Shown here piece by piece: positions 17,154 to 54,526 of a DNA stretch of 64,000 nucleotides. Both the position numbers and the translations under genes were made by a program. How positions within the stretch are numbered: the stretch's first letter is position 1; every line of letters begins with the position of its first letter. The stretch is from Faecalibacillus sp. (GTDB lineage: Bacteria; Bacillota_I; Bacilli_A; RFN20; CAG-826): NCBI GenBank assembly GCA_963588175.1, contig CAVAGP010000003.1:34871-98870 (forward strand), read 5' to 3'. The notes under the pieces were generated by a model that did not search any database, had not been told where the DNA came from, and worked only from the letters and a program-made list of their open reading frames with translations.

Positions 17154-17231
17154 GTCTATATTGTACCAATTTACGGAGCAAATGCATTTTTCCTTTTAAT
17201 AATATTAGGAAGATGGGCATAATTAGCCGGC

Positions 17232-17723: not shown

Positions 17724-17763
17724 AAAATGCGCAGGATTTGCGCATTTTTTATCGTTTTGTAGA

Positions 17764-18660: not shown

Positions 18661-18683
18661 AAATGTATTCTACCAAATTGTTA

Positions 18684-37713: not shown

Positions 37714-39149
37714 TATTTTAAGAATCCTGTCAATGCGGACTTCATGCCGTTTGCATTGATATCTTTGTAATACCCAAGAACCGTATCATGACAGTTGGAG
37801 AGTTTATTCAAGTCTTCTCCCCAGAAGTCGATATTGCCCAAAACGGATGTGACAACTTCGTCTTCTCCCTTATCCGCTAAACCGGCAAAGAAAGCTAAAT
37901 AGGATGGGTCATCTTTTAAGGCGATAACATCCCCGTTTTCGCGTTTGCCGCCATAGAATTTAATCAATGCAGCAAGAGAGAACATCGCATGTTTTGGCAA
38001 ATATCCCTTAAGTTCAAGATAATCTTTGACTGTTGGTAATACTCTGGCCTTATATTTTGAAATTGAGTTAAGGGCGATAGACATGAGTTCATGCTTCACA
38101 AATGGGTTCAAATAACGTTCGAAAACGGAATTGGCAAACGAAATCATCTGATCCTGCGGAAGTTTGATTGTCGGCACAACTTCATCGAAAACGAATTCAC
38201 GCGCGAATTTTCCAACATTTGGATCTTGAATCGACTCCATAACACAATCAATTCCGTAAAGATATGAGACTGGCACCATACAAGTGTGGCAGCCATTGAG
38301 AATCTTAACTTTGCGTTGCTTGTATGGAACGATGGAATCGGCATAGATGACATTTAAACCAACCTGATCACATGGGAATATTTCCTGGATGTGTGGCTCT
38401 TTATCAAGAACCCACAAATGGAAGATTTCGCCTTTGACAATCGAATTGTCGATATATCCCAATTCTTTCGTAATAGTTTCAATTTCATCACGTGGATATC
38501 CTGGAACAATACGGTCAACAAGGGTCGATGTGAAGTGACAAGCATTTTCAATCCAAGAGATGAAACCTACTTCAAATCCCATTATTTTCGCTAAAGCCAA
38601 GACACATTTGCGAAGTTCTTTTCCATTGTGATCGATGAGTTCGCAGCAAATGAATGATAAGCCTTTGTTCATATCGCCTGCAAAGTGATCGTAACGATGT
38701 TTTAACAAGGCCAAAACTTTGCCCGGGAACGTTTTTGGTGTGACCGCGAAATCCGTATCAGATGAATCTAGGGCGATTCCAGCTTCGGTTGTATTTGAGA
38801 TGACAACTTCCAAATCCTCAGACTCGGCGTATTTCAAAAATTTGTCGTATTCCGAATATGGGTTGATGAAATCGTCCAAAACATCAATAACCTGATGAGT
38901 TCTAACAACCTCACCATTGTTGATTCCCTGAAGGTAAAGAGTGTATAAGCCATCTTGTTTAGCGAGGTCGATAACTCTACCGGAGGCTAAAGGCTGGACC
39001 ACTACAACATGCCCATTATATTTTCCAGAATCATTCATCTTCTGGATGATCCAATCGACGAATGCACGAAGGAAGTTTCCTTCCCCGAATTGCATGACCT
39101 TTATTGGAGCGGTCCTCTTCTCAACGATTTTCGCACTTAAATTTTCCAT
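37713..39149 (-). CDS. uxaB: Altronate oxidoreductase (tagaturonate reductase)
   Basis: Mannitol-dehydrogenase-family N-terminus MQFGEGNFLRAF. Start placed at ATG 39149; the track ORF has a spurious upstream extension. Confidence 0.85.
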   Translation of the reverse strand: MENLSAKIVEKRTAPIKVMQFGEGNFLRAFVDWIIQKMNDSGKYNGHVVVVQPLASGRVIDLAKQDGLYTLYLQGINNGEVVRTHQVIDVLDDFINPYSEYDKFLKYAESEDLEVVISNTTEAGIALDSSDTDFAVTPKTFPGKVLALLKHRYDHFAGDMNKGLSFICCELIDHNGKELRKCVLALAKIMGFEVGFISWIENACHFTSTLVDRIVPGYPRDEIETITKELGYIDNSIVKGEIFHLWVLDKEPHIQEIFPCDQVGLNVIYADSIVPYKQRKVKILNGCHTCMVPVSYLYGIDCVMESIQDPNVGKFAREFVFDEVVPTIKLPQDQMISFANSVFERYLNPFVKHELMSIALNSISKYKARVLPTVKDYLELKGYLPKHAMFSLAALIKFYGGKRENGDVIALKDDPSYLAFFAGLADKGEDEVVTSVLGNIDFWGEDLNKLSNCHDTVLGYYKDINANGMKSALTGFLK

Positions 39150-39218
39150 ATAAAACCCCTTGGCTATTTCGCTTGTTCTGTTAATTAGATTGTATAACAA
39201 AAAATTCCAAACGCAATC

Positions 39219-39232
39219 TGTTGTATACAAGA
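39219..39232. promoter_or_regulatory. Operator-like near-palindrome TGTTGTATACAAGA upstream of uxaB (second half-site-like GATTGTATAACAA at 39188-39200)
   Basis: Matches the 16-mer palindrome found at 40775 and 55446. Confidence 0.45.
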
Positions 39233-39250
39233 CCATTTTGAATAATTTTA

Positions 39251-40621
39251 TTATTCGGTTTTTGGTAAGAATTTATCGAAATGCTTCCAATTGTAGACAA
39301 GGAATGGGGCTTCGAAACATATCATGGCAAACCAGCCGATCATTGTGGAAAATGCCGCAGATTGCATTGGCCCTACCGAGCATGCAACTAAAATAAACAT
39401 GGTGGCCACCCTGACCACAATCTGAACCGTTGTGGAATAGAAAACCATATTAAGTTTCCCCATGCCTCTGAAGAAACTCTGAATCGAGTTTGTTATGCAC
39501 GGCAAAATGTAGAGGAAACACATAATGGAGAGATACAAGACCCCGCTATCGACAACAAGTTCTCTATCAACCACATCAGAACCAATAAACAAATTAAATA
39601 CAGGTCTCTTAAGCAATGCGATGGTAATAGAGATCAAAACTCCATAAATAAGATTCATTGCAAAACCGGTAAGATAGCCTCTCTTGCATCTTTCTTTGTT
39701 TCCCGCTCCCCTATTCTGAGCGACAAAAATGCTTGTGGCATGTCCGAAGTTTTGGCCAGGGGCAAAGACAAAATCATCGAGTTTGGAAGCTCCTCCGAAA
39801 GCGGCAATGTAATAAGCGTCAAACTTATTTATTTGCGTGGATATGGCGTATTTGCCAACATACAAGACTATTTGCTGCATTGCCGAGGCAACGGCATAAC
39901 CTGTCGAAATTTTAAGCAACGATCCGTCAATCACATATTCTTTAGGGGATAAAACAAGCAAAGTCTTATAACGCAGCTTGCCATAAATTATTATCAAGAT
40001 TGCCGATAATATCTGCGAAGTCAAAGTGGATAAGGCAACACCAACAATCTCCATCTTGAATTGAGCGACAAATACAATATTCAAAACGATGTTAAGGATG
40101 CAAGAAACGGCAAGGAAGATGAGGGACGCTAAGGAATCACCAAGCGCACGTAAATATGAAGCGTACATGTTATAAAGGAACGAGAACACAAGGCCTAACG
40201 AAGTGATGCCTAGATAAACCATCGCATCATGCTTCAATGTCGGATCGGTGACATTGGAAAGGGCCATGATAGGCGTTAACAATAAATTGAATAGCACAGT
40301 TAGACATAGAGAAAAAATCCCGAATACAATAAGGCATGAAGCGAATTGTTTTTTCAAAGAGCATTCATCACCTGTTCCAAATAACTGGCTGGTATGAATC
40401 GCCAATCCAACGCATAACCCGGAAATAAGAGAGATGAAGATGTTGAATATTGGGCCGGCAATTGATAAAGCGGCCTGAGAATTGATTGGGTCGGCGGAAA
40501 ACCAACCCATGATAATGTAATCGAAAAGATTATAGGTAAGTTGAAGTATGCTTCCTAGAACTAAAGGCAACGAGAAAAGAAATAATTGAGGTACGATTTT
40601 TCCTTCTGTCATCTTCTTCAT
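39251..40621 (-). CDS. MATE-family efflux transporter
   Basis: 12 TM segments, MATE N-terminal pattern. Start placed at ATG 40621. Confidence 0.8.
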   Translation of the reverse strand: MKKMTEGKIVPQLFLFSLPLVLGSILQLTYNLFDYIIMGWFSADPINSQAALSIAGPIFNIFISLISGLCVGLAIHTSQLFGTGDECSLKKQFASCLIVFGIFSLCLTVLFNLLLTPIMALSNVTDPTLKHDAMVYLGITSLGLVFSFLYNMYASYLRALGDSLASLIFLAVSCILNIVLNIVFVAQFKMEIVGVALSTLTSQILSAILIIIYGKLRYKTLLVLSPKEYVIDGSLLKISTGYAVASAMQQIVLYVGKYAISTQINKFDAYYIAAFGGASKLDDFVFAPGQNFGHATSIFVAQNRGAGNKERCKRGYLTGFAMNLIYGVLISITIALLKRPVFNLFIGSDVVDRELVVDSGVLYLSIMCFLYILPCITNSIQSFFRGMGKLNMVFYSTTVQIVVRVATMFILVACSVGPMQSAAFSTMIGWFAMICFEAPFLVYNWKHFDKFLPKTE

Positions 40622-40774
40622 AACGCCGCCCCCTTCATTGAGAAATTCTATCATCAGCGCATTTTTAAGCGCATAAAAATATAGTGATGTATACAACAAA
40701 AATGAAGAAATTTATTTTTTTGTAAATAAAAAAGACACAAGAATATATACACGGCATCGTACTTTTTCGAATCT

Positions 40775-40901: not shown

Positions 40902-41948
40902 ATGAAGCAAAGTGAGTACGTAAGACTCAATCCGGAGACCAATCGCTACGAATTGGACGACGAGCAAAGAGTCAGAGATGACGTTGAGAAACACCGCTGG
41001 AAGAACAACGGCCTAACCATCTTTAAGGACTGGCGTCTTTATTTGATGCTCGTTCCAATGGTGGCTGTTTTCTTATTCTGGAGATACTTCCCAATGTATG
41101 AATTATTGGGATGTTTCAAGGTAACAGAGGTTGGCGTTGACGTTGGGGATCAGAACTACTGCGGTTACTACAACTTCATCGAGCTGATGTTCAGTAACAC
41201 AACCCAAACCACCCAATTCTGGGCCGCGTTCCGTAACACATTCCTTCTTTCATTCTATGGATTGCTATTTGGATTCCCGGTCCCTATCATCCTCGCAATC
41301 TTCTTCAATGAAATCAAATCAGATATCCTCCGTTCAGGCTATCAGGTCTTAACTTATCTTCCTAAGTTCATGTCAACGGTCGTCATGACAACACTAGTCA
41401 CGCTTCTCTTGAAGAATTCAAATCAAGTCTCTGATGCAGGTATCATCTCACAGGCGCTTGCCAAGATTGGGCTCATCTCCCAAGAAGTCGCCGATAAAGG
41501 ATTGTTGCATAATCCAAATTACTTCAGGGCCATCTACCAAATATCAGGCATTTGGGAAGGCGCAGGCTACGACTCAATCGTCTACTTCGCCGCAATCATC
41601 GCGGTTTCCCCTACTCTATATGAGGCCGCGCAAATCGATGGCGCTACGAAAATGCAGCAGATGAAGAGCGTTGTCCTCCCTTGTATTCTCTCAACCATCG
41701 TCATCATGCTGATCAACAGAATCGGGTCACTCCTATCCATAGGATACGAAAAAGTCATCTTGCTATACACAACCGACACATACGTCACTGCAGACGTTGT
41801 TTCCACGTTCGCATACCGTATCGGCCTCGAAAGCGGGTCGCAAGGAGTTGCTTCCGCCGCTGAAATGCTAAACAACATCACCGGAATGATTCTTGTAATC
41901 GGGGCTAACAGCATTGCTAGAAAAGCAAGCAATGTCTCGCTCTATTAA
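40902..41948 (+). CDS. Sugar ABC transporter permease (CUT1, LplB/MalF-like)
   Basis: 348 aa, 6 TM segments, EAA-loop region QIDGATKMQQMKSVVLP. Confidence 0.8.
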   Translation: MKQSEYVRLNPETNRYELDDEQRVRDDVEKHRWKNNGLTIFKDWRLYLMLVPMVAVFLFWRYFPMYELLGCFKVTEVGVDVGDQNYCGYYNFIELMFSNTTQTTQFWAAFRNTFLLSFYGLLFGFPVPIILAIFFNEIKSDILRSGYQVLTYLPKFMSTVVMTTLVTLLLKNSNQVSDAGIISQALAKIGLISQEVADKGLLHNPNYFRAIYQISGIWEGAGYDSIVYFAAIIAVSPTLYEAAQIDGATKMQQMKSVVLPCILSTIVIMLINRIGSLLSIGYEKVILLYTTDTYVTADVVSTFAYRIGLESGSQGVASAAEMLNNITGMILVIGANSIARKASNVSLY

Positions 41949-41961
41949 GGAGGGCTTGAAA

Positions 41962-42861
41962 ATGAAACGTAGACTAGAAGCTAGCGAATTAATCTTCAAG
42001 ATTATCTCCTACACGCTGCTTACATTATTTGCGCTCAGCTGCTTATATCCATTCATATACGCAATATCCTCTTCTATATCAGGCGCACACGCAGTTGACT
42101 ATAACGAGGTCATCCTTTTCCCAAAAGACATCCAATTTGACGCTTTCAAATCAATATTCGAAAACAATATGTTCTGGAACTCTTACGCCAACACATTGTT
42201 CTTGACATTCTTCGGAACAATCTGGGCATTAGGAGTCGCAATCCTCGGTGGTTACGCTCTCTCAAAGAAGAGATTGCTCTTCAGAAAAGGCTGGAACTTC
42301 TTCCTCGTCTTCACAATGTGGTTCTCAGCAGGTATCGTCCCACAGTACCTCAACTACTTATCAACTTACAAGGTCTTCTCATCAATCGGCATCAAAGACG
42401 TCAAATGGCTCATCGTCATCGCAATGGGTATGGCGGCCATGAACATCATTCTTTTAAGAAATGCGTTCGAAGGCGTTTCTAGTGAAATCGAAGAAGCCGC
42501 TAGAGTCGATGGCGCAACCGAGATGCAGGTTTTGACCAACGTTTACATCCCGATGAGCAAATCAACCATCGCAACAGTCGCGTTGTTTTTCGCAATCTCT
42601 AGATGGAACGGCTACTTCTGGGCTAGAGAAATGATCGCAGCCGCTCACTCACCAAATGAGCAGCCACTTCAAGTCTTCATAAGATTATTGCTTGAGGACT
42701 ACACAAATACAGATACTCTGGCAAGCTGGAACAAGAACTATTCAGCATCCTCAGCAATCTATGCACTCATCATCTGCGCAATCATCCCTATCTTGATTAT
42801 TTATCCATTCATCCAGAAATATTTTGCCAAAGGCACGAATATGGGCGGTGTAAAGGAATAA
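41962..42861 (+). CDS. Sugar ABC transporter permease (CUT1, LplC/MalG-like)
   Basis: EAA loop EAARVDGATEMQVLTNVYIP. Start placed at ATG 41962, which has an AAGGAGGG Shine-Dalgarno. The track ORF starts at an upstream TTG. Confidence 0.8.
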   Translation: MKRRLEASELIFKIISYTLLTLFALSCLYPFIYAISSSISGAHAVDYNEVILFPKDIQFDAFKSIFENNMFWNSYANTLFLTFFGTIWALGVAILGGYALSKKRLLFRKGWNFFLVFTMWFSAGIVPQYLNYLSTYKVFSSIGIKDVKWLIVIAMGMAAMNIILLRNAFEGVSSEIEEAARVDGATEMQVLTNVYIPMSKSTIATVALFFAISRWNGYFWAREMIAAAHSPNEQPLQVFIRLLLEDYTNTDTLASWNKNYSASSAIYALIICAIIPILIIYPFIQKYFAKGTNMGGVKE

Positions 42862-42908: not shown

Positions 42909-45134
42909 ATGAACAAAAAAGTTAATGGTCTAATGCTCGCATCAATAACAGCAGTCTTAGCGTTAGCAGGATGCGGACGTAACACCCCAACATCCTCTTC
43001 AGAAAAAGGCGGTGACACTCCAACATCTCAGCAGTCACAACAGACAAGCGAAGATAAAACACAGCCTGAGACATATTCAGCAAAAGCAACAAAAGCAGCT
43101 GAATTCGTCGCAAAAACTTGGAAAGGCACAGACTATCTTGAAATCAAGCAGCACCAGTGGGAGAAACTCCAGACTTACTACAAAGGACTCACAAAAACAG
43201 CAACAACAGGCACAGCCCCAAAAGTTGTTGCCGGAACTGAATTAAGAGTCGCTGGCGGTTACCAAAAGCAAAACGAAGCCATTTCATTTCAGGATGCTTC
43301 AATCACAGGCGAGGGAATCACATTGGCGGATGGTGTAACATATCACACAAATGACTTAAAGCCAACATGGGCCGCACTCGAGAAGCAACTCGGAATCGAA
43401 TTCAAAGATTTATTCAAAGGCTCAGGTTCAGCTGAAAAAGAATATAAAGCTTGGGAAAACAACCTCGAAGATGTTGATATCATCGCAGGTTCAGCCTCAG
43501 TCCTCGTCGCAGCAGGTTCGCAGGGAAAAGTCATTGACCTCAACAAGTACATGGATAAACTCCCTAACTTCAAGAACTACCTCGACAATAACCAAATCGC
43601 ACGTCTTTCCATCACCGGTTCAACAGAAGGCGATAACAAAGGCGCAATCTACTTTTCCCCATACTTCGATGGCGTTGATGATATCGAGAGAATGCCTTTG
43701 ATCAGAGCTGACATGGTCAGAAAACTGCTCGATGGCGATACAGCATATGCAGGCGCAAATAGAGACGTCAAGACAAACGGATGCACAGCATACATGCCAA
43801 CCAGCGGCAAAATCGAAGTCGAAGTCTCGGATTCAGCAGGATTGGTCTCAAAACTCACAAAAGATTACTCAAAATACGGAAACATCGTCGAGAAAATGAA
43901 TGCAGAATCTGGATTAAAGGGTGATAAGGCTGTCCAGATGTTCCGCGATTACATCGACAAAACATATGCTGGACATTACACAAAGAGATCAGACCTCTTC
44001 CTCGGCTACGACGCAGCTTGGGATGCAGATGAAATGGTCGCACTCCTCCGTTGCGCAGGCGCTTCACTAAATGACAGTGATGGCAACCCAATCACTCCAC
44101 TTTATTCACGTGAAACAGGCAACAACCAGAGAGATATCGACTTAACACGTTTCGCAGGGTCCCTCTTCGGTGCCCGTGGATTAGAGTCAAGACAGGATTA
44201 CCTCTACTTCGATTCAACAGGCACATTACATGATGCACGTCAGGAAGCAAAATCATACGATGCAATGGAAAGAATGCACGGACTTGTCACAGAAGGACTC
44301 GTTGGATTGGCAGCAGGCTCAACAAGCACCAGTGCTCTTGAAAAAGATGCAGGCATCATGTCATACGACTACAACCAGACTCAGACCGTCATGAACGCAA
44401 CAAAGCTCCAGGATGGCGAGGAATATATCGCCATCATGGTCCCAGTCGCAAAATGGTCAGATGGCAAGAAGACTGAATACAAGAGATTCACAGAATCCTG
44501 GAGATCAGTCAAGACCGATGGTTGGGCAATCTCAGCAGCGGGAGTTGAAGGCAACGAGAACAAGCTAAATGCAGCCCTTGCCTTAATCGACTTCGCCTTC
44601 TCAGTCCAGGGTCAAATCACAATGTCATATGGACCGGACTCATTCATCAAAGTCAAAGATTCATCAGTCACAGTCAAGGATTGGGATGATGTTGCCGAGA
44701 AATATGAAACATTCAATTTCAACGGAACTCAGATGCCGGTCATCAAAGATGAAACATATGCAGAACTCCAGAAATTGACAGGCGGCAACTACACCAACTA
44801 CGCAAGAAGATACCTCGGATCAACATTGAATGGATTCCCTAAATCACAGGCATTCGAATATCAGTGCACAAACGAGATAGGCAAGAAGGGTTCGGCAGTC
44901 TTGGCAACGGCAATCGGCGCAGGAACAATCAGCCACCCAGTCCTCGCAATCAACGAAGACAACATGTGGTACACATCAATTCCAACAACATTGCCTACGA
45001 CATCAGCTCAGACAGATTCATTAAAAGCCTTGACCGATATCACAACCAACTTCTCGTCAAGCAAAGGTGGAATAAACGTCTTATATAACCTGCTCTCAAC
45101 AGGCGAAACAGGCGTTGATACATTCAAGTATTAA
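42909..45134 (+). CDS. Extracellular solute-binding lipoprotein of the sugar ABC importer (LplA-like); unusually long at 741 aa
   Basis: Signal peptide plus lipobox LALAGC, followed by a Ser/Thr/Gln-rich linker and then a family-1 SBP-like body. Confidence 0.7.
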   Translation: MNKKVNGLMLASITAVLALAGCGRNTPTSSSEKGGDTPTSQQSQQTSEDKTQPETYSAKATKAAEFVAKTWKGTDYLEIKQHQWEKLQTYYKGLTKTATTGTAPKVVAGTELRVAGGYQKQNEAISFQDASITGEGITLADGVTYHTNDLKPTWAALEKQLGIEFKDLFKGSGSAEKEYKAWENNLEDVDIIAGSASVLVAAGSQGKVIDLNKYMDKLPNFKNYLDNNQIARLSITGSTEGDNKGAIYFSPYFDGVDDIERMPLIRADMVRKLLDGDTAYAGANRDVKTNGCTAYMPTSGKIEVEVSDSAGLVSKLTKDYSKYGNIVEKMNAESGLKGDKAVQMFRDYIDKTYAGHYTKRSDLFLGYDAAWDADEMVALLRCAGASLNDSDGNPITPLYSRETGNNQRDIDLTRFAGSLFGARGLESRQDYLYFDSTGTLHDARQEAKSYDAMERMHGLVTEGLVGLAAGSTSTSALEKDAGIMSYDYNQTQTVMNATKLQDGEEYIAIMVPVAKWSDGKKTEYKRFTESWRSVKTDGWAISAAGVEGNENKLNAALALIDFAFSVQGQITMSYGPDSFIKVKDSSVTVKDWDDVAEKYETFNFNGTQMPVIKDETYAELQKLTGGNYTNYARRYLGSTLNGFPKSQAFEYQCTNEIGKKGSAVLATAIGAGTISHPVLAINEDNMWYTSIPTTLPTTSAQTDSLKALTDITTNFSSSKGGINVLYNLLSTGETGVDTFKY

Positions 45135-45247: not shown

Positions 45248-45820
45248 ATGTTTAAACCGCAAATGAAATTCCAAAAGATAATGTCCATCGCATTATTGAT
45301 CCTTGCAGCTCTGACATTTTTCTATTCCATTGGAATCGCGACCGATATCTATCCGCTGCATTTGGCGGAAGCCCTTGAAAGCGTGGATGGTTATCAATTC
45401 TTTACAGAAATCCAGCCTTATAACAAGCAAGAAGTTATTTTCTCCATTGTTGTTGTGGTAGCAAGTCTCGCACCTTTCATCTTCGCCTCAAACACAAGAC
45501 GAAAATATTACTGGGACAACTATTTGGGTTTTGGAATACAAGGCGGAGTTCTTATCGCCTATTCAATATTCACGATTGTTCAAACCACAATCTATAAAAA
45601 CAGATTCTTAACAGAAGTTGATGTCGAAGGATACAAAGCCTGGTGCGAAAAGAAGGGGCACTTCTATTCAGGCACCACAATCTGGTTCGATTTGGGCTAC
45701 GTTTTCGCCGCTCTTTGCTTAATCGCCGTCGGAATCATAGTCTTCAACATAATCTGGAAAATCAAACTCGAAAAAGCCGAGAAAGCGCTTTTGGCAGGAG
45801 GATCAAACGATGGAAAATAA
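45248..45820 (+). CDS. Small polytopic membrane protein A (190 aa), unknown function
   Basis: Four hydrophobic helices, a GAGG Shine-Dalgarno. Overlaps the next ORF by 11 nt. Confidence 0.4.
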   Translation: MFKPQMKFQKIMSIALLILAALTFFYSIGIATDIYPLHLAEALESVDGYQFFTEIQPYNKQEVIFSIVVVVASLAPFIFASNTRRKYYWDNYLGFGIQGGVLIAYSIFTIVQTTIYKNRFLTEVDVEGYKAWCEKKGHFYSGTTIWFDLGYVFAALCLIAVGIIVFNIIWKIKLEKAEKALLAGGSNDGK

Positions 45821-46304
45821 TGAAGAACTCATCAAAAACGACCCTAAAATCAAAGAGGATCGCCTTCGTTTCACCAAAAATAAGATTCCTTCATGGCTCT
45901 GCTATTTGGCAATCGTATTCGATGTCATCTATTTCATCAGCGTTTATAAAATCAACCATGAGTATTTCTACACAGGCATGATTGCGGTCTCAATCATCGC
46001 AAATCTCATCTTCATGCTTGGGGTCTTCCTCTCTAGCGAAGAGGTCAAAAACTACAAATCATCTTACGCCATCGTGATGCTAGTCTTTGCGGTGATGCAG
46101 ATAGCAAGGATATTCATCTATCCGTATAACGCCTACATCACCCAGGGGAATGACGGGGCATATGTCATCGAAATGCCCATGTTCTTATTCCTTGCCGCAA
46201 TGCTCGCATGCTCTGCCATTTCATTAATCGTCGGGGGAGTCATCGGCATCTTAAAGTCTCGCAAACACAAAAAGGCCATGGCAGATGCCCAGGCCGTTAA
46301 ATAA
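45810..46304 (+). CDS. Small polytopic membrane protein B (164 aa), unknown function
   Basis: Four hydrophobic helices, an AGGAGG Shine-Dalgarno. N-terminal motif KIPSW before TM1. Confidence 0.4.
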   Translation: MENNEELIKNDPKIKEDRLRFTKNKIPSWLCYLAIVFDVIYFISVYKINHEYFYTGMIAVSIIANLIFMLGVFLSSEEVKNYKSSYAIVMLVFAVMQIARIFIYPYNAYITQGNDGAYVIEMPMFLFLAAMLACSAISLIVGGVIGILKSRKHKKAMADAQAVK

Positions 46305-46315
46305 GGAGGTTAGAC

Positions 46316-47380
46316 ATGGCAACATTAAGCTTACAGCACCTCGATAAGATTTATGATAACAAGGTTCAGGCCGTCTTCGACTTCAATCTTGATGTCAAAG
46401 ACGGGGAATTAATCGTTCTCGTCGGGCCTTCTGGATGCGGCAAATCCACAACATTAAGAATGGTCGCCGGACTTGAGGATATCTCAGCTGGACACCTCCT
46501 AATCGATGGAAAAGACGTCACAAAAGAACCTGCAAAGAATAGAGATATCGCAATGGTCTTCCAAAACTATGCGCTTTATCCTCACATGACAATCTATGAA
46601 AATATGGCGTTTTCTCTTACCTTAAGGAAAGAAAACAAGAACATCATCCACAAGAAAGTCATGGCAGCCGCTGAAATCCTTGGCTTAACCGAGCAATTGA
46701 ACAAGAAACCAAATCAGTTATCAGGCGGCCAAAGACAGAGAGTCGCAATGGGACGTGCAATCGTCCGTAACCCGAAGATTTTCTTGTTCGATGAGCCATT
46801 ATCAAACCTCGATGCAAAATTAAGAGGATCGACAAGAAGGGAAGTCAAGCTCCTCCATAAGAGACTTGGCACCACGATGATTTATGTCACCCACGACCAA
46901 ACAGAAGCATTAACCCTTGCGGATAGAATCGTCTGCATGTCAATGGGATATGTCCAGCAAATCGGCACTCCTCTTGAATTATATGACCATCCGAAAAATA
47001 TCTTTGTCGCCTCATTCATCGGACTCCCTCCAATGAATTTGTACGACCTCGAATTAAAAGATGGCGAATTCTATCTAGAAGGCATAAAACACCACGTCAG
47101 CCAGAAGATTGCCGATGCGGTAAAAGCAAGTGGCAAGACGAAATTCGTCGTTGGAGTCAGACCAGAGGATATCATCCCGGGCAACGACTACAACCTACAC
47201 GTAACCATCAACGAGAACACCGGCCATTTCACCCTTACGCACGGAACTCTCTTCGGAAAGACATCCTGCGCTAAGTTCCGTGGATGGCAACGCTACAAAG
47301 ATGGCGATGTGGTAAGAATCAGCTTCATTCAGGAAAAAATCCATCTCTTCGACAAAGAGACGACAGAGGCGATATTCTAA
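46316..47380 (+). CDS. MalK/MsmX-family sugar ABC transporter ATP-binding protein (ATPase 1)
   Basis: Walker A GPSGCGKST, signature LSGGQRQRVA, DEPLSNLDAKLR, plus a C-terminal MalK-type regulatory domain. 354 aa. Confidence 0.9.
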   Translation: MATLSLQHLDKIYDNKVQAVFDFNLDVKDGELIVLVGPSGCGKSTTLRMVAGLEDISAGHLLIDGKDVTKEPAKNRDIAMVFQNYALYPHMTIYENMAFSLTLRKENKNIIHKKVMAAAEILGLTEQLNKKPNQLSGGQRQRVAMGRAIVRNPKIFLFDEPLSNLDAKLRGSTRREVKLLHKRLGTTMIYVTHDQTEALTLADRIVCMSMGYVQQIGTPLELYDHPKNIFVASFIGLPPMNLYDLELKDGEFYLEGIKHHVSQKIADAVKASGKTKFVVGVRPEDIIPGNDYNLHVTINENTGHFTLTHGTLFGKTSCAKFRGWQRYKDGDVVRISFIQEKIHLFDKETTEAIF

Positions 47381-47390
47381 AGGAGGCGTT

Positions 47391-47960
47391 ATGAAGGTAG
47401 CAAAGAGAAAAAAAGGAATAAAGGAATCATTCCGCAAATTCATCGTTTCCCTCAAGAGAAGGCCACACAACATTCCACTTGTGTTCATGCTCATCACATT
47501 CTTGGTGTTTGCATTGAATATGACATCGATCAGCAACACAACCGGTTATATTAACAGGAACCCCATGGGCTTATGCTCATTCGTCATCATGCTGGTATCG
47601 ATTCTGGCAATGGTCGCATTCTTAAGAGCCTTCCCTAAGAGAAAGAAACCTGTCATTTGGATGATGGTGCTTCTATACGTGATGATGGTTATTGTTATGG
47701 GCGCTGATATTTGGTATCTCTTAAAAATCCAGGCTTGGAAAGATGCAACAGCAAACTGGGCGGAAATAGTTGTTGATGGCGACCACAATTACGTTATAAC
47801 AACTTGGAATATTCTAATTGCGCATATAATAATGACTGGAATTGGCATTGCGCTAACAGCCTTGATTCCGGTCTTAGGCAAACTGTTTGGCTTAATCAAC
47901 ACCTCAGTTGACCTTGGAGAGAATGAAGGCATGACAAAAATCGAGACAGTAGACGAATAA
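47391..47960 (+). CDS. Small polytopic membrane protein C (189 aa), unknown function
   Basis: AAGGAGG Shine-Dalgarno, a basic N-terminus, motif NIPLV before TM1, four hydrophobic helices. Confidence 0.4.
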   Translation: MKVAKRKKGIKESFRKFIVSLKRRPHNIPLVFMLITFLVFALNMTSISNTTGYINRNPMGLCSFVIMLVSILAMVAFLRAFPKRKKPVIWMMVLLYVMMVIVMGADIWYLLKIQAWKDATANWAEIVVDGDHNYVITTWNILIAHIIMTGIGIALTALIPVLGKLFGLINTSVDLGENEGMTKIETVDE

Positions 47961-47962
47961 TC

Positions 47963-48592
47963 ATGGATAAGAACAACAAGGCTAAAAAAGAGGAAATGAA
48001 GCAAAAGAGCGCAGTTGACCGTTTGGTTGAAGCATCCAATGGCGACGCCAGCGGAGACGACTACGTTGAGAAAAACGAAAAGCAATATCACGCCGGATTC
48101 CTCGCAAAAATCCCAACGTGGATTAAAGCCTTACTCCTGAAATGGTGGTTTATCGGAGCGGTATGCTTCTTCTTCCTATGGGGCTTTGGCAATTACATCA
48201 CCGCCCATTGGGATAAGATACTTATCCTCGGGCTAGCATCAGGCGCCGTAACAAACCTGCTCACAAACAATCTCCTTAGACTGATTGAGCGTGAGGATGG
48301 TGAATTCAACCTCTACATGATGCTGCCAACCAAAAAGTTATGGGCCCTATTTGTAGACATTGTCTACGGCTTCGTAATAACAATACTAGTCGTTTATACA
48401 TACGAGGGCATAAACACGCTAGTTATCCAACTGAATCCAACCAAATACACCTCGGATTCAGTTCCATTAGGAGTTGAGCCATTGCTATATGGCCTCTTCT
48501 ATCTCGCATACGACATGATATTCATATGGGTTAAAAACCTGATTGTCTATCTATTCAAGAAAAATAAAGCTGCACAACTAACTCGGAGGTAA
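47963..48592 (+). CDS. Small polytopic membrane protein D (209 aa), unknown function
   Basis: Motif KIPTW before TM1 and four hydrophobic helices. Begins 2 nt after the previous stop. Confidence 0.4.
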   Translation: MDKNNKAKKEEMKQKSAVDRLVEASNGDASGDDYVEKNEKQYHAGFLAKIPTWIKALLLKWWFIGAVCFFFLWGFGNYITAHWDKILILGLASGAVTNLLTNNLLRLIEREDGEFNLYMMLPTKKLWALFVDIVYGFVITILVVYTYEGINTLVIQLNPTKYTSDSVPLGVEPLLYGLFYLAYDMIFIWVKNLIVYLFKKNKAAQLTRR

Positions 48593-48596
48593 GCTT

Positions 48597-49676
48597 ATGT
48601 CAGACATAGTTCTAAAAGACGTTAACAAAATCTATCCAAACGGATTCCATGCGGTCCACGATTTCAATCTCGAAATCAAGGATAGGGAATTCATCGTTTT
48701 CGTCGGCCCATCTGGCTGCGGCAAATCAACAACCCTCCGCATGATTGCTGGACTTGAGGAGATTTCCAAAGGCGATTTCTTGATCGATGGCGTGCGCGCT
48801 AATCATATGTCATCAATCGATAGAGGCGTTGCAATGGTCTTCCAGTCCTATGCTCTTTATCCACACCTCTCAGTTTATGATAACCTCGCATTCGGCCTTA
48901 CCTTGGCCGGCATTGACGCTGACGTCATCGATGAGAAAGTCAACAAAGTCGCAGGAATACTTGGATTAACCGATTATCTCGACCGAAAGCCAAAAGCCTT
49001 GTCAGGCGGTCAAAGACAGCGTGTAGCTGTGGGACGCGCCATCATTAGGCAAGTTGATATTTTCTTAATGGATGAGCCTCTCTCCAACCTCGATGCCAAG
49101 CAAAGGGTCACAATGAGAGCGGAAATCCTTCAGATTCATAGGCAGACCGGGGCCACAACAATCTATGTCACCCACGATCAAACCGAGGCTATGACACTCG
49201 CTGATAGAATCGTCTGCATGAAGGATGGCTATATCCAGCAAGTCGGTACTCCAGAAGAACTCTACTTCCATCCTGTCAACGTCTTCGTTGGAGGATTCAT
49301 CGGTGAGCCGCCTATGAATTTTGTCAAAGGTGACGTCAAAAATAACATCATGGCTTTTGACAATAGCAATGTGACAGTAGATTTATCCCATACAAATTAT
49401 GCACTTACTGGCGATAGATTGTTCTTCGGGTTTAGGCCGGAGAGCGTAACCATCCACGAAACTGAAAATGCCTACAAATTCCACGCAAAAGCCACATTGA
49501 CTGAAATGTTTGGCGATTCCACAAACGTATATGTCGACATTGATGGCGTCACTTTCATCATCAAGCTTGACCCGCACGATGCACCAAATATGGATGAGGA
49601 GTTTGACTTCTATGTTCCATATGAGAACGTGTATTTATTCGATGGGGAGACAGAGAACATATTAGTTCTCAAATGA
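48597..49676 (+). CDS. MalK/MsmX-family sugar ABC transporter ATP-binding protein (ATPase 2)
   Basis: Paralog of the 46316 ATPase: GPSGCGKST, LSGGQRQRVAVGRAI, DEPLSNLDAKQR. 359 aa. Confidence 0.9.
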   Translation: MSDIVLKDVNKIYPNGFHAVHDFNLEIKDREFIVFVGPSGCGKSTTLRMIAGLEEISKGDFLIDGVRANHMSSIDRGVAMVFQSYALYPHLSVYDNLAFGLTLAGIDADVIDEKVNKVAGILGLTDYLDRKPKALSGGQRQRVAVGRAIIRQVDIFLMDEPLSNLDAKQRVTMRAEILQIHRQTGATTIYVTHDQTEAMTLADRIVCMKDGYIQQVGTPEELYFHPVNVFVGGFIGEPPMNFVKGDVKNNIMAFDNSNVTVDLSHTNYALTGDRLFFGFRPESVTIHETENAYKFHAKATLTEMFGDSTNVYVDIDGVTFIIKLDPHDAPNMDEEFDFYVPYENVYLFDGETENILVLK

Positions 49677-49677
49677 T

Positions 49678-50244
49678 ATGTCTTTCCGCAAGTATAGAGC
49701 ACTTGACTTAAGCATTTGGCTAGTAATCTATCTGGTGTTTGAGTTCATCATCGTAAGAGCCGCTACAAAATGGTTTCCAGACCAGGCCTATAGCGTCTCT
49801 TTGATGTTGCCAATGCTTCTCCTCATCATGATGAGATGGGGTCCATACGTTTCTATCCATGCAGTCCTATTCGGTGCTGCTTTTGTTTTATTTAATGGTT
49901 GGCCCGGAACCTGGCAGCAATACGTCATCTACCTCATCGGGAATGGCGGTTTTATGATTACCCTTTGGTTCTTGCTAGGATTTGGGAAAGATAGAGTAAA
50001 AGGCAAATGGTATTACACCGTTTTATATGCCACCATAGGTTTTATTTCCATGGAAGTATTCCGGGGAATTGCTGCGATAATCGTTTCTAATGAGCCATTT
50101 GAGATCATCACCAGTTTCATCTTCACGGATATGCTCTCATTCGCTTTTGCTGTGATTGTTTTGTTAATTGCTAGACAAGTTCCTGGCTTGTTCCAAGACC
50201 AGGCTCAATATGTCAGAAACGTCCAAAAGGAGGCCGAAGAATAA
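49678..50244 (+). CDS. Small polytopic membrane protein E (188 aa), unknown function
   Basis: 5-6 hydrophobic segments. Its start is 1 nt after the ATPase-2 stop, and its stop overlaps the GH28 start codon (TAATG). Confidence 0.4.
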   Translation: MSFRKYRALDLSIWLVIYLVFEFIIVRAATKWFPDQAYSVSLMLPMLLLIMMRWGPYVSIHAVLFGAAFVLFNGWPGTWQQYVIYLIGNGGFMITLWFLLGFGKDRVKGKWYYTVLYATIGFISMEVFRGIAAIIVSNEPFEIITSFIFTDMLSFAFAVIVLLIARQVPGLFQDQAQYVRNVQKEAEE

Positions 50245-51764
50245 TGAAAGCTGTGTTTGTCTCTTGCGTAAGCGCTACTTTTGAACTAGATAATCAAGAT
50301 ATCTATTTCTCAGAGAAAAAATTCTCAATCAAAGTCAATGGGACCCTTTATGAAGAAGATGTTGAGACCAACGTTTTTTCCATCTTTAATTTAGAGCCAA
50401 ACAAAGACTACGAAATCGAAGCAAACGAGCAATCATGCAGCATCAAAACGCCATCCGTGAGCGAAATCGTCTCATTATTCCCTGGATGCGATTTGCAAGA
50501 GGAAATCCTAAAAGCAAAAGACAACGCTTTAATCGAACTCAACAAAGGCGATTACTATATCACTTCATTGCTTTTGAGAAACAATGTCACAATCAACATC
50601 AAGAAAGGGGCTACGCTTCTAGCCAATTTAAATCCAGATGATTATCCGGAAATCCCGCCATATTTCACCAACGAAAAAGGCGAGGAGGAAGTTTATGGCA
50701 ACTGGGAAGGAACCGCTCAAAGGATGAAACGTTCCATCGTCATGGCTCATCACGTGAAGAACGTCATACTCGTCGGAGAAGGCACAATCGATGGCCAAGC
50801 CCAGTTATCAACTTGGTGGATTGACTGTAAAAAGAAAACTCCGAGACCACACCTTATTTTCATATCCCATTCAAACCACATCTATCTGCAAGGCCTCCAT
50901 ATAATGAATTCCCCACAGTGGACAATCCATCCATTTTTCGCAAATTCTTGCGGATTCTACGATTTATTCATTGAAAATCCGAAGATTTCTCCGAATACTG
51001 ATGGTCTTGATCCTCAATCATCCAGCAATATTGAGATCATCGGGGTCCGTTTTTCCGTTGGAGATGACTGCATTGCCGTCAAATCCGGGAAGATGGATAT
51101 GGCAACTAGATACAAGAGACCGTGCGACAAAATCACCATCCGCAATTGCTGGATGCAATATGGGCATGGAGGGGTTGTTCTAGGATCTGAAATGTCTGGA
51201 GGAATCACAAACCTCAATGTAGAAAGGTGCTATTTCGACAAAACCGATAGAGGATTGAGAATCAAAACAAGGAGAGGACGCGGTAAATTAGCCATAATCG
51301 ATAACGTCTACTTCAAAGACATCAAGATGGATGGGGTTCTATCCCCAATCACGATGAATATGTTCTATTTCTGTGACCCAGATGGGAAAACAGAATACGT
51401 CTGGAGCAAAGACAAATTGCCAGTAGATGATAGAACACCATACTTAGGCAAATTCACATTCGAAAGAATCGCGGCCACGAACGCAGAACAAGCCGCGGCG
51501 TACTGCTATGGCCTGCCAGAAATGCCTATAAACGAAATAAACATCATGGATTCACGCTTCTCCTTCAAAGAGGACGCGAAGGCTGGCACTCCCGCTATGA
51601 TGAGTTTCGCCGAAGAGTGCAGAAAACAGGGTTTTGTCTTCAATAACGTCAAAACGGTAAACATCAAAAACGTGACAATTAGCGGGCATGTGGGCGATCC
51701 TATAAGAACCAGTGGGGTTGAGAAGATAACAACCGAAATGTTCAAAACGGAGGAAGAGCAATGA
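50244..51764 (+). CDS. GH28 polygalacturonase / exo-poly-alpha-galacturonosidase
   Basis: GH28 catalytic motifs NTDGLD, GDDCIAV, GHGGVVLGSE and RIKT. Confidence 0.85.
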   Translation: MKAVFVSCVSATFELDNQDIYFSEKKFSIKVNGTLYEEDVETNVFSIFNLEPNKDYEIEANEQSCSIKTPSVSEIVSLFPGCDLQEEILKAKDNALIELNKGDYYITSLLLRNNVTINIKKGATLLANLNPDDYPEIPPYFTNEKGEEEVYGNWEGTAQRMKRSIVMAHHVKNVILVGEGTIDGQAQLSTWWIDCKKKTPRPHLIFISHSNHIYLQGLHIMNSPQWTIHPFFANSCGFYDLFIENPKISPNTDGLDPQSSSNIEIIGVRFSVGDDCIAVKSGKMDMATRYKRPCDKITIRNCWMQYGHGGVVLGSEMSGGITNLNVERCYFDKTDRGLRIKTRRGRGKLAIIDNVYFKDIKMDGVLSPITMNMFYFCDPDGKTEYVWSKDKLPVDDRTPYLGKFTFERIAATNAEQAAAYCYGLPEMPINEINIMDSRFSFKEDAKAGTPAMMSFAEECRKQGFVFNNVKTVNIKNVTISGHVGDPIRTSGVEKITTEMFKTEEEQ

Positions 51765-52441
51765 TCAAATCAATTGATTCAATATATGAAGAGATAAGAA
51801 ACAAAATCATATATCTCGAATTGCCGCCCAATACCAAAATCCGCGAAGAGGATTTAGCGGAAGAATACAAGATTTCTAGGACACCGATCAGAGGCATTAT
51901 CTCCCGACTCGTTCAGGATAAGCTTTTGGTGGTAGCCCCTCAAAAGGGAACCTTTGTCACAAGAATCAACATCAAAGAAATTCATGACTATATCTTCATA
52001 AGAAAGTCCGTTGAGCTAGCAGTCATCAAAATCGTCGCGGAAGTCGCAACAGATGAGGATTTGGATGCCTTGATGGCAATACTTGATGAGCAAAAGACAA
52101 TTGCCGCCCAAGAACCTTCAATCGAGAAATCAATCGCCTTCTATAAAACCGACAACGAATTCCACCGATTGATGTTCAAAATCGCCGGGGAGGAAAACGT
52201 ATGGAACCTGGTTATTGGAGGTGTTACACCTCTTAACAGGGCTCGTATCATGGCCAATCTCAGAGACTCGGAAAGAGTCATGGCGGTCTATGAGCAGCAC
52301 CGCAAAATCGTTGATATGCTTAAAGCAAAAGATAACGAAGCCGCAATAAAAGCGTATGATGAACACCTGGATAGAGGCTTTGACGGCTTAAATCCAGTAA
52401 TCGAGCAATACAAAGACTATTTCGTCGGAGGAGAAAACTAA
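51761..52441 (+). CDS. GntR-family transcriptional regulator, FadR subfamily (wHTH + FCD domain), ExuR/UxuR/KdgR-like
   Basis: N-terminal wHTH EEDLAEEYKISRTPIRGIISRL and a C-terminal all-helical FCD-like domain. Embedded in the hexuronate operon. Confidence 0.8.
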   Translation: MIKSIDSIYEEIRNKIIYLELPPNTKIREEDLAEEYKISRTPIRGIISRLVQDKLLVVAPQKGTFVTRINIKEIHDYIFIRKSVELAVIKIVAEVATDEDLDALMAILDEQKTIAAQEPSIEKSIAFYKTDNEFHRLMFKIAGEENVWNLVIGGVTPLNRARIMANLRDSERVMAVYEQHRKIVDMLKAKDNEAAIKAYDEHLDRGFDGLNPVIEQYKDYFVGGEN

Positions 52442-52442
52442 T

Positions 52443-53855
52443 ATGGAACAATTTATGGATGAAAACTTCCTTTTAAAGACAGAGACAGCGAGAAAACTTT
52501 ATCATGAGCACGCTGAAAAGATGCCAATCTATGATTATCACTGCCATCTTCCTGTAAAAGAGATTTACGAGAATAGACATTTTGAAAATATCACAAAACT
52601 TTGGCTAGTCGAAGATCATTTCGGCGACCATTACAAATGGAGAGCGATGCGCAATAACGGAGTCGAAGAAAAATACATCACCGGAAATGCATCGGACAAA
52701 GAGAAATTCATGAAATGGGCTGAGACGATCCCATACACAGTCGGAAACCCTCTTTATCATTGGACGCATCTCGAATTGAAGAGATTCTTCGGAATCAATA
52801 CCATCTTCTCACCTAAGACCGCTGAAGAAGATTGGGAGATCATGAACAAATACCTTGCCGAACATGGAACTAGAGACATCATCGCCTCCGCTAATGTGGC
52901 AACATTATGCACAACAGACGACCCAGTTGATGACCTCCACTACCACAAGGCCATGTATCAGGATAAGACTATGAAATTCCATGTCTATCCAGCCTTTAGG
53001 CCTGACAAGGTCATCAATGTCGATTGGGATTCCTATGTCCCATACATCAAGCAATTAAGCGATGTTGTCGGATATGAAATCAAAGATTTATACACCCTTG
53101 AGAAAGCATTGAAAGAAAGAATCGAATACTTCCACGAAGCAGGATGCAGAATCTCAGACCACGCCTTAGACGTCGTCATGTATGAGGATGCCAGCGAAGA
53201 TGAAGTCGACGCAATCACGGTTAAAGCCATCAAAGGTGAGAAACTCACCCCATCTGAAATCGCAAAATACCGTGGATTCGTCATTATTTTCTTAGGAAGA
53301 CAATATCACGCTCACAAGTGGGTGCAGCAGTATCACATCAAAGCCTTGCGCAACAATAATGGCAGAATGATGAGAAGTGTCGGTGCCGATACCGGATTCG
53401 ATTCAATCAACGATGGACAAATCGCCACCCCATTATCAAAGATTCTCAATACGCTTGATTCAACAAATGAGCTCCCAAAGACCATTGTCTATTCCCTCAA
53501 CCCAAGCGATAACGAGGTGCTTGCCACTCTTGCCTTCTGCTTTGCTGAACCAGGAGTTCCAGGCAAAATGCAGTTAGGCTCAGGCTGGTGGTTCCTTGAT
53601 CAAAAAGACGGCATGGAAAAACAGTTAACCGCCCTTTCTAACCTTGGCTTATTGTCGAGATTCATCGGAATGCTTACCGATTCAAGATCATTTATCTCCT
53701 ACACGCGTCACGAATACTTCAGAAGAGTGCTCTGCAACTTCTTAGGCGACCTCGTCGAGAACGGTGAGTATCCTAACGATATGGAATTCCTTGGAAAAGT
53801 AGTTGAAGATATCTGCTATAACAATGCAAAGAGATACTTCGACGAATCAAGATGA
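52443..53855 (+). CDS. uxaC: Glucuronate (uronate) isomerase
   Basis: 470 aa, UxaC N-terminal motif FLLKTETARKLYHEHAEKMPIYDYHCHL. Confidence 0.9.
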   Translation: MEQFMDENFLLKTETARKLYHEHAEKMPIYDYHCHLPVKEIYENRHFENITKLWLVEDHFGDHYKWRAMRNNGVEEKYITGNASDKEKFMKWAETIPYTVGNPLYHWTHLELKRFFGINTIFSPKTAEEDWEIMNKYLAEHGTRDIIASANVATLCTTDDPVDDLHYHKAMYQDKTMKFHVYPAFRPDKVINVDWDSYVPYIKQLSDVVGYEIKDLYTLEKALKERIEYFHEAGCRISDHALDVVMYEDASEDEVDAITVKAIKGEKLTPSEIAKYRGFVIIFLGRQYHAHKWVQQYHIKALRNNNGRMMRSVGADTGFDSINDGQIATPLSKILNTLDSTNELPKTIVYSLNPSDNEVLATLAFCFAEPGVPGKMQLGSGWWFLDQKDGMEKQLTALSNLGLLSRFIGMLTDSRSFISYTRHEYFRRVLCNFLGDLVENGEYPNDMEFLGKVVEDICYNNAKRYFDESR

Positions 53856-54526
53856 GTACCATTTATCTAATTGGCGATTCAACCTGTCAGACCAATTTTG
53901 AGGACACCTACCCTCAAATCGGCTGGGGACAGGTTTTTCCTAGTTATGTCAAAGACTGCTATAAGGTTGTTAATCTTGCGAAAAATGGGCGTTCAACCAA
54001 AAGCTTTCGCGATGAAGGATTGTTTGAGCCATGCAAGGAAAACATAAAGAAAGGCGATTATCTTTTCATAGAATTCGGCCACAACGACGAAAAGAAAGAG
54101 GATCCAACTAGATTTACCGATCCATTTGGAAAATATCAGGAAAATCTCCTCTATTTTATAAACACCGCAAGAAGTGTTGGGGCAACTCCAATCCTCTTAT
54201 CCCCGATTTATAGAAGACACTTTGACGAAAACGGAAAAATAAAAGACAACGTCCACCTCAACTATCCAGAGGCCGTTAGACTCTTGGCGGAAAGAGAAGG
54301 CGTTATCTATATCGATATGTGTGAACTCACCAAACAATATCTATCAAAATTAGGAGACGAGGCTTCTAAAGAATTATTCATGAACTTCACTCCAGGCCTA
54401 TACCCAAATTACCCTGATGGCAAAAATGACAACACCCATTTCCGGGAAAAAGGCGCAAAGATGGTGTGCGATATACTCTCGCAAGAATTAAAAAAGAGCA
54501 AAATTACCTCCGTTCTTCTAAAGTGA
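53852..54526 (+). CDS. SGNH/GDSL hydrolase, probable rhamnogalacturonan acetylesterase (CE12)
   Basis: Block I GDSTC, block III GHND, block V DNTH. Confidence 0.75.
   Translation: MSTIYLIGDSTCQTNFEDTYPQIGWGQVFPSYVKDCYKVVNLAKNGRSTKSFRDEGLFEPCKENIKKGDYLFIEFGHNDEKKEDPTRFTDPFGKYQENLLYFINTARSVGATPILLSPIYRRHFDENGKIKDNVHLNYPEAVRLLAEREGVIYIDMCELTKQYLSKLGDEASKELFMNFTPGLYPNYPDGKNDNTHFREKGAKMVCDILSQELKKSKITSVLLK

Follow-up and report, generated by a model that had tools for sequence, protein, structure and literature searches.

The DNA considered here is a 64-kb stretch of a Faecalibacillus sp. genome (contig CAVAGP010000003.1), hereafter called the window. Its central feature is a run of seven tightly packed genes on the + strand that encode, according to the list of open reading frames (ORFs), membrane proteins with transmembrane helices (TM) and ATP-binding cassette (ABC) ATPases in the order TM(190)-TM(164)-ATPase(354)-TM(189)-TM(209)-ATPase(359)-TM(188), where the numbers are lengths in amino acids (aa). 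On the 5' side the run is flanked by the gene of a 741-aa lipoprotein (42909-45134), and on the 3' side by a GH28 gene (50244-51764). An earlier, sequence-only reading of this DNA had listed the same seven ORFs, and its layout was reproduced exactly, with all genes on the + strand. We regard these ORFs as part of a set of ten genes of a dedicated pectin-fragment uptake system of gut and rumen Bacillota. At a probability of about 0.5, this system would be one dedicated oligogalacturonide importer, consisting of a type I core and five obligatory extra membrane subunits, here named A to E. The genes in question are as follows.

perm1, 40902..41948, + strand: type I (CUT1-like) ABC permease with the EAA loop YEAAQIDGATKMQQMKSVVLP; Pfam BPD_transp_1 at 2e-9 and weak NCBIfam UgpA/MalF matches.
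perm2, 41914..42861, + strand: type I ABC permease with the EAA loop EEAARVDGATEMQ; Pfam BPD_transp_1 at 4e-12 and NCBIfam UgpE/MalG matches.
Giant lipoprotein, 42909..45134, + strand: 741 aa with the lipobox LAGC, in the position of a substrate-binding protein; no known family.
A, 45248..45820, + strand: 190 aa, tetraspan, novel family; K3/Q5 near the N-terminus are invariant, a cytoplasmic loop contains RRxYY, and outer loop 1 is variable.
B, 45810..46304, + strand: 164 aa, tetraspan, novel family; conserved N-terminal DRxRY and a SEGVKNY loop.
ATP1, 46316..47380, + strand: 354 aa, ABC ATPase of the MalK/UgpC type, with an OB/TOBE domain at its C-terminus.
C, 47391..47960, + strand: 189 aa, tetraspan, novel family; a conserved basic helix of 22 residues at the N-terminus (KExxRKFIVSLKRRP) and a predicted outward TM3-TM4 helical hairpin.
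D, 47963..48592, + strand: 209 aa, tetraspan, novel family; a cytoplasmic N-terminal segment of ~55 aa, with VTDLLTNN, GVEP and KIPxW conserved.
ATP2, 48597..49676, + strand: 359 aa, second MalK/MsmX-type ABC ATPase, paralogue of ATP1.
E, 49678..50244, + strand: 188 aa, predicted six-helix S-component fold of the energy-coupling factor (ECF) type, novel sequence family; a conserved C-terminal cytoplasmic helix.
GH28, 50244..51764, + strand: polygalacturonase-family hydrolase, Pfam Glyco_hydro_28 at 7e-38; usual neighbour of D or E.

The coupling of these genes is as tight as had been described: A and B overlap by 11 nt, ATP2 and E lie 1 nt apart, E and GH28 share 1 nt, and the remaining junctions are overlaps or gaps of 1-12 nt. 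The strong Shine-Dalgarno sites claimed for the run exist, in the AGGAGG-type form, in front of five genes (A, B, ATP1, C and ATP2), whereas D and E have weak ones. In the ORF list, perm2 begins at a TTG codon within perm1 (41914), and the true start is probably the ATG at 41962, giving 299 aa, since the orthologue in a 90%-identical relative (L090) has 299 aa. A scan of the window for promoters and terminators gave the same counts as in shuffled sequence. With L090 as the reference, the ratio of nonsynonymous to synonymous substitution (dN/dS) is 0.02-0.09 across all seven genes (A 0.067, B 0.079, D 0.048), as low as for perm1 and GH28, and all seven are under strong purifying selection. They are real genes, because they combine these ratios with the occurrence of each family once per locus in ~80 related loci.

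To obtain the related loci, each species was represented by one genome in a pattern scan, which found relatives in at least 138 species; 80 loci were kept, and the ORFs of 86 loci were classified with local hidden Markov models (HMMs). The kept loci come from metagenome-derived or uncultured-isolate assemblies whose sample names suggest rumen and gut, and their hosts include Erysipelotrichaceae, Oscillospiraceae/Ruminococcaceae, Lachnospiraceae and others. In all complete loci, from at least three families, the same nine genes stand on the same strand in the fixed order E-perm1-perm2-lipoprotein-A-B-ATP1-C-D, usually with GH28 next (it adjoins D in 52 loci). The HMMs of A to E recognised each family once per locus with zero cross-matches between families, and orthologues were counted for A (77), D (85), ATP1 (78) and ATP2 (61). 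perm1 is present in every complete related locus, and a lipoprotein of 687-932 aa follows perm2 in every locus. The gene between B and C is ATP1 in 78 of 78 loci, and the median intergenic distances are -4 nt for E/perm1, -4 nt for A/B, 12 nt for B/ATP1 and -1 nt for ATP1/C.

The block is always found among galacturonan catabolism genes, namely GH28, GH88/105, CE8, a GDSL esterase, UxaC, KduI/KduD and KdgK/KdgA, together with a GntR/FCD regulator. The C family amounts to 55 clusters in a word-indexed protein search and, among 1.84 billion representatives, to 408 clusters. When the profile of the E family was searched, 76 clusters came back, each of them a strong member, and the contexts inspected showed the same block. 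In these searches for relatives of C and E, with contexts inspected, none of the families A to E was seen outside this type of pectin locus. Likewise, among the loci examined, none was found with A-D/ATP1 and no permeases, or the converse. The view that this is not a standard operon design is borne out. The type I importer genes are always accompanied by five extra membrane proteins.

The sequence-only reading had described the run as duplicated modules, each of two small membrane proteins and an ATPase, followed by a fifth membrane protein. Tandem duplication of a [TM-TM-ATPase] cassette would produce such a pattern, and the two ATPases are indeed paralogues, with 48% identity by BLASTP. For the membrane proteins, in contrast, neither pairwise BLASTP nor profile comparison revealed mutual similarity among A to E (best hhalign profile-profile probability 7%), and A does not resemble C, nor B D, as the cassette would require. 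The two ATPase clades also split before the host families diverged, and the second "module" is non-contiguous in most lineages. ATP2 is located ~2 kb past GH28 in most Oscillospiraceae, directly after D in Lachnospiraceae and before E in Erysipelotrichaceae; in some loci (L003/L004, L020, L022, L026 and L050) it is absent within 10 kb. E follows ATP2 only in the window and in L090, being upstream of perm1 elsewhere, and it is this placement that makes the run look like two modules with a fifth protein added. The pattern TM-TM-ATPase-TM-TM-ATPase-TM is thus lineage-specific, A to E appear to be five mutually unrelated families, only the ATPases are paralogous, and we reject cassette duplication, which has next to no chance of being correct. 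The related suggestion that B, C and D form one family finds no support in the profile comparison or in the family alignments. The K/N-I-P-x-W/V motif on which it was based is present in B, C and D of the window; the families of B and C do not conserve its proline. A faint hint of similarity exists between B and C (an hhalign alignment of 151 columns at a probability of 2%, and a match of the B HMM to one C member, P0091, at E=0.0013), which we treat as unproven.

Both ATPases were assigned previously to the MalK/MsmX subfamily with a C-terminal regulatory domain, and this assignment stands. They match Pfam ABC_tran (2e-34 for ATP1, 2e-29 for ATP2) and OB_MalK, ATP2 additionally matches TOBE_2, and both pass the cut-off of 432 bits of the NCBIfam UgpC subfamily NF008653, with 450.1 bits for ATP1 and 433.8 bits for ATP2. 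DEPLSNLDAKLR is found in ATP1 and DEPLSNLDAKQR in ATP2. The Walker A (GPSGCGKST), Q-loop (FQxYALYPH), signature (LSGGQRQRV), Walker B/D-loop (DEPLSNLDAK) and H-switch (YVTHDQ) sequences are intact in both, and the catalytic motifs are conserved across the 78 ATP1 and 61 ATP2 orthologues. No other ABC ATPase is encoded in the window. The best Protein Data Bank (PDB) matches of both are MsmX, AlgS, MalK and SugC. Bacillus subtilis MsmX is the nearest solved structure to ATP2, with 378 bits compared with 343 bits for ATP1. In a neighbour-joining tree with five solved relatives and 100 bootstraps, ATP1 and ATP2 each form a clade (100/100 for both) with parallel internal branching, and a grouping of ATP2 with B. 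subtilis MsmX is not recovered (5/100). ATP1 appears to be the constant motor gene of the block, because the ATPases of single-ATPase loci fall in the ATP1 clade. ATP2 looks like an old, co-inherited paralogue that has no nearby copy in some lineages. The residues that separate the clades comprise 35 fixed differences, spread over the sequence and somewhat more frequent after the D-loop.

Hydropathy averaged over each family shows four hydrophobic segments for each of A to D and about six for E. The positive-inside rule indicates that A to D have both termini in the cytoplasm, since their N-termini, TM2-TM3 loops and C-termini are rich in Lys/Arg. The most conserved parts of A to D in the alignments are the cytoplasmic juxtamembrane segments and not the outer loops. 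Pfam and NCBIfam searches with the window copies of A to E returned zero matches, and the Pfam scan was extended at E≤1 to 29+29+29+27+29 = 143 family members together with the seven window proteins. Within this set no BPD_transp_1 (PF00528) match was found in A to E or in the 143 members, which agrees with the earlier statement that none of the five small proteins is a CUT1 permease; the permeases of the locus are perm1 and perm2 (40902-42861), which match the family and carry EAA loops. No EAA-like coupling-helix motif was seen in the alignments of A to E. No member of A to D matches CbiQ/EcfT (PF02361) in the same scan, and the A to D profiles retrieved no EcfT chain from the PDB sequences at E≤10; the profiles of A to E compared with all PDB sequences gave nothing. 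A sub-threshold signal, DUF6057 in 15 of 27 members of C, is regarded as compositional.

Small membrane proteins also occur in the pectin/rhamnogalacturonan loci of the B. subtilis yes and yte operons. By analogy of context, A to E might be ordinary accessory proteins of the DUF624/YesL-YesV type that belong to Firmicutes pectin ABC systems, as the sequence-only reading had listed among its options. This similarity of setting is what speaks for the proposal. Against it, DUF624 (PF04854) has no match at E≤1 in any of the seven window proteins or the 143 family members, and NCBIfam also returned nothing; the PDB hits included no structure of a DUF624 protein. We therefore reject this explanation, which has become very improbable.

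Among the four tetraspan proteins, C has the most distinctive predicted structure. The model shows a long N-terminal amphipathic helix that ends in KRRP, then four TM helices, with the hairpin between TM3 and TM4 directed outwards. In seven relatives (P0090, P0094, P0095, P0099, P0110, P0137 and P0144), insertions of 60-700 aa occur exactly at the tip of this hairpin. They are Ala/Glu/Lys-rich and coiled-coil-like or, in P0137 (858 aa), made of repeated units, and they suggest a variable extracellular stalk. Two other relatives, P0133 and P0125, contain two tandem C domains, and because of these proteins C may act as a dimer or pseudo-dimer. Fusions of the Rosetta-stone type that join C to A, B, D, E or an ATPase were found in none of 150 representatives, which showed only the C-C tandems and the insertions.

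These features invite comparison with the type VII mechanotransmission ABC systems (MacB, LolCDE and FtsEX), which resemble the present proteins in having four TM helices, as predicted for A to D, and an amphipathic N-terminal helix with outward stalk helices, as predicted for C. The differences are considerable. No member of A to D matches the FtsX or MacB_PCD models of Pfam, their loops are short and lack the long TM2-TM3 coupling loop, and the ATPases are of the MalK type. Furthermore, the extension of C is placed between TM3 and TM4, whereas in type VII systems it is between TM1 and TM2, and A to D have no large extracytoplasmic domain.

Protein E is of a different kind, with a model that has the six-helix fold of an ECF S component. 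No sequence family of S components (PF12822, PF07155, BioY and others) matches it, whether in the 29 E members scanned at E≤1, in NCBIfam or in the comparison of the E profile with the PDB sequences. An AxxxA motif in helix 1 marks the S components that dock on EcfT (Partipilo and Slotboom, PMC11109136). It occurs in 30 of 63 members of the E family, with A/G at position 15 in 45 of 63 and A at position 19 in 26 of 63; the E of the window has L15 and L19 and does not carry the motif. According to the modelled helix boundaries, four invariant polar residues (R53, N89, R129 and D151) and also W32/F33 would lie in the outer half of the helix bundle. This is the half in which S components bind their ligands. 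As two of these residues are invariant arginines, we infer that the site would suit the carboxylate of an anionic uronate. E also has a conserved cytoplasmic C-terminal helix (G170, E173, Q175, Y178 and R181), which has no counterpart in classical S components.

E shares its predicted fold with the S components of ECF (type III) importers. Those importers consist of an S component, EcfT and EcfA/EcfA', whereas no EcfT/CbiQ-like or EcfA-like gene was found in the locus and the ATPases are MalK-type rather than EcfA-type. In addition, E belongs to no S-component sequence family, and the window copy has Leu at both motif positions. ECF importers serve the uptake of vitamins and metals, whereas E resides in a polysaccharide locus and is coupled to a type I permease gene (PMC11109136; PMC13543919). 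Other proteins with the S fold are MreD, the 5TMR-LYT kinases and solitary BtuM, from which E differs in lacking a kinase or output domain, in not being in a cell-shape operon and in being confined to a pectin ABC locus.

The existence of such solitary and non-transporting relatives (BtuM, the 5TMR sensor kinases and the MreD scaffolds; PMC11109136) lends some weight to the view that A to E are co-regulated bystanders rather than transporter subunits, and that the two ATPases are redundant motors for perm1/perm2. E could then act alone as an S-type carrier or as a sensor, with a monomer such as galacturonate or an unsaturated uronate as its ligand, and A to D could serve as anchors in the membrane, as regulators or as assembly factors, for example of the giant lipoprotein or in the handling of pectin outside the cell. 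The missing AxxxA motif of the window E, the long extracellular insertions in relatives of C, which point outside the membrane, and the lack of anything like an EAA coupling helix in A to E are all consistent with this view. Against it stand the invariant gene order and the overlaps with ATPase and permease genes across distant lineages, the conservation of A to D at their cytoplasmic juxtamembrane segments, and the finding of the five families in this locus type only; we consider it unlikely.

Additional information comes from the relative conservation of the proteins. The mean identity over 40 complete loci is 84% for perm2, the most conserved protein of the block, 79% for perm1, 78% for ATP1, 77% for ATP2 and 64% for the lipoprotein, followed by C (55%), GH28 (53%), A and B (52% each), E (49%) and D (48%). 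In ABC importers the ATPases are usually more conserved than the permeases, which is the reverse of what is seen here. Because the permeases are the more conserved, we read the order as suggesting a hub with many partners and unusually many constraints. The lipoprotein had been called LplA-like, which holds for its position and not for its sequence: it has no Pfam match at E≤0.01, SBP_bac_1/8 included, and no relevant NCBIfam or PDB-sequence match. Its gene position and lipobox lead us to take it as the putative binding protein, and with its equally unannotated orthologues it seems to be an orphan family in its own right.

From these observations, the following arrangement can be proposed for a single importer. 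The core would be a type I (CUT1-like) importer with two EAA-loop permeases, the giant surface lipoprotein as receptor, and MalK-type ATPases. A to E are permanently attached to this core genetically, and by extension perhaps physically as well. The lipoprotein would capture oligogalacturonides and deliver them to perm1/perm2, and transport would be powered by an ATP1 homodimer or, in loci with ATP2, by an ATP1-ATP2 heterodimer. A to D may form a membrane collar whose conserved basic cytoplasmic N-terminal helices and loops touch the ATPases and whose outer loops touch the lipoprotein, the TM3-TM4 hairpin of C being the clearest candidate for the latter contact. E would add a second, membrane-embedded polar binding site (R53, N89, R129 and D151). 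In the genes themselves, E is normally translationally coupled to perm1, while A to D bracket ATP1 and are translationally coupled to it. The single importer is favoured because E is coupled to perm1, the permeases are extremely conserved, ATP1 is the ATPase kept in single-ATPase loci, and no partial system was found. The fixed nine-gene core with its short gaps, the occurrence of each small family once per locus, the low dN/dS, the constant galacturonan setting and the S-component fold of E also speak for it.

Several points weigh against a single importer. The dimer of nucleotide-binding domains (NBDs) has no more than two coupling grooves, both of them taken up by the EAA loops of perm1/perm2, and this leaves the coupling of five more proteins unexplained. 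ATP1 never adjoins the permeases and is always inside A-B-_-C-D, an arrangement that fits a separate A-D/ATP1 machine at least equally well. S-fold proteins are also employed as sensors or scaffolds, as in the 5TMR kinases and MreD (PMC11109136). The physical assembly, its stoichiometry and the assignment of partners to the ATPases are inferred, oligogalacturonides are named as the substrate from the neighbouring genes, and the structural argument relies on two monomer models. The mirror-tree correlations of distance matrices, which count in favour of a single importer, are exploratory, being drawn from 40 related loci and confounded by their shared phylogeny; they reach 0.96 for ATP1-ATP2 (0.71 after removal of the common trend), followed by 0.68 for perm2-lipoprotein, 0.55 for lipoprotein-C and 0.53 for B-D.

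Some of these points are accommodated better by two machines: a type I importer (lipoprotein, perm1 and perm2) that runs on ATP2 or, where ATP2 is missing, on a shared MsmX-type ATPase with its gene elsewhere, and a novel A-D(+E)/ATP1 machine of an ECF-like or tetraspan-based kind. In the latter, A to D would contact an ATP1 dimer through their N-terminal basic helices in place of the EcfT scaffold, E may be the S subunit, and the machine could import a second pectin-derived solute or perform mechanical work at the outer face as MacB/FtsEX do. Such a division is suggested by the overlapping or nearly overlapping position of ATP1 between B and C in all 78 loci and by the need of both coupling grooves for the EAA loops. 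The S-component fold of E, with small-xxx-small in helix 1 of 30 of the 63 family members, and the build of C, with its amphipathic helix leading to KRRP, four TM helices and a hairpin that in some relatives has huge coiled-coil insertions, agree with it too. Of the two paralogues, ATP2 is closer to B. subtilis MsmX (378 vs 343 bits), and it changes place in the locus or is absent from it, which resembles the multitask MsmX ATPases that Firmicutes encode at unlinked positions (PMC5730181, PMC7658222). However, E is in most loci translationally coupled to perm1 and not to A-D, ATP2 forms its own clade that branches parallel to ATP1 instead of grouping with MsmX (5/100), and no member of A to D matches the CbiQ/EcfT or FtsX models. 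No locus was found in which A-D/ATP1 occur sans permeases, or the reverse. To our knowledge, moreover, MalK-type ATPases with TOBE domains occur only with type I permeases. We hold the two-machine arrangement to be possible, though we would sooner doubt it than adopt it. It is close to two of the options given in the sequence-only reading, a non-canonical architecture on a MalK-like ATPase and a division in which one ATPase serves the importer and the other an unknown partner, both of which may still apply.

ABC importers are textbook four- or five-part machines, divided into type I/II systems, which depend on binding proteins, and ECF systems, which depend on S components. The closest known relatives of a single enlarged importer are the CUT1 pectin importers TogMNAB of Dickeya, YtcQ-YteP-YtcP/MsmX and YesOPQ/MsmX of B. 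subtilis (PMC5730181), and AlgM1M2SS-AlgQ of Sphingomonas. They share with the present locus two EAA-loop permeases, a receptor lipoprotein, MalK/MsmX-type TOBE/OB ATPases and, in their genomic setting, galacturonan genes. Four components are sufficient for them, whereas the locus adds five membrane proteins and usually has two ATPase paralogues; its lipoprotein (~700-930 aa) has no match to substrate-binding protein families, and among its proteins the permeases exceed the ATPases in conservation. Searches of the open-access literature on oligogalacturonide ABC transport, MsmX, DUF624 and S components with MalK yielded no description of a system of this kind. A 2024 survey of the S-component fold covers ECF S components, MreD and 5TMR kinases and includes no sugar-ABC partner, and a 2026 review of bacterial glycoside transporters lists ECF systems only for vitamins and micronutrients.

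We tentatively raise the possibility, which we would not call probable, that the locus represents a new class: either a hybrid of type I permeases, receptor lipoprotein, S-fold subunit, four-tetraspan scaffold and MalK-type pair, or a self-standing A-D/E/ATP1 machine, ECF-like or mechanotransmitting, free of both EcfT and type I permeases. With either wiring, E would be the first S-component-fold protein dedicated to the uptake of polysaccharide fragments and coupled to MalK-type ATPases. The conserved operon, which occurs in gut and rumen Firmicutes of at least 138 species, combines type I and ECF elements with four unannotated membrane families. If the extra proteins are true subunits, they would provide a new way to build or regulate an ABC importer and reveal an unrecognised requirement for the uptake of anionic pectin oligomers by Gram-positive fibre degraders. 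The five families and the orphan lipoprotein, all of which are now annotated as "hypothetical protein", could serve as markers of pectin-uptake loci in rumen and gut metagenomes.

The genes on both sides of the block in the window complete the galacturonate pathway and its regulation. On the - strand, 36310-40699 contains a GH4 gene, a mannitol-dehydrogenase-family oxidoreductase of the altronate/tagaturonate type and a MatE exporter; on the + strand, 51761-54526 contains a GntR/FCD regulator, UxaC and a GDSL esterase.

Two minor observations concern other loci of the set. Two Erysipelotrichaceae contigs carry, a few kb beyond the downstream end of the ABC block and immediately past the pectin catabolic genes that follow it, an IS200/IS605 element (L005 17552-19106 and L006 17552-19107) that comprises a Y1 transposase and a TnpB/OrfB_IS605 gene with a Cas12f-like TNB domain. 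In L018, a second and different ABC cluster (16824-20544) follows the pectin block; it encodes membrane proteins of 127 aa and 395 aa, a perm1-like permease and a 359-aa MalK-like ATPase whose branch is very long.

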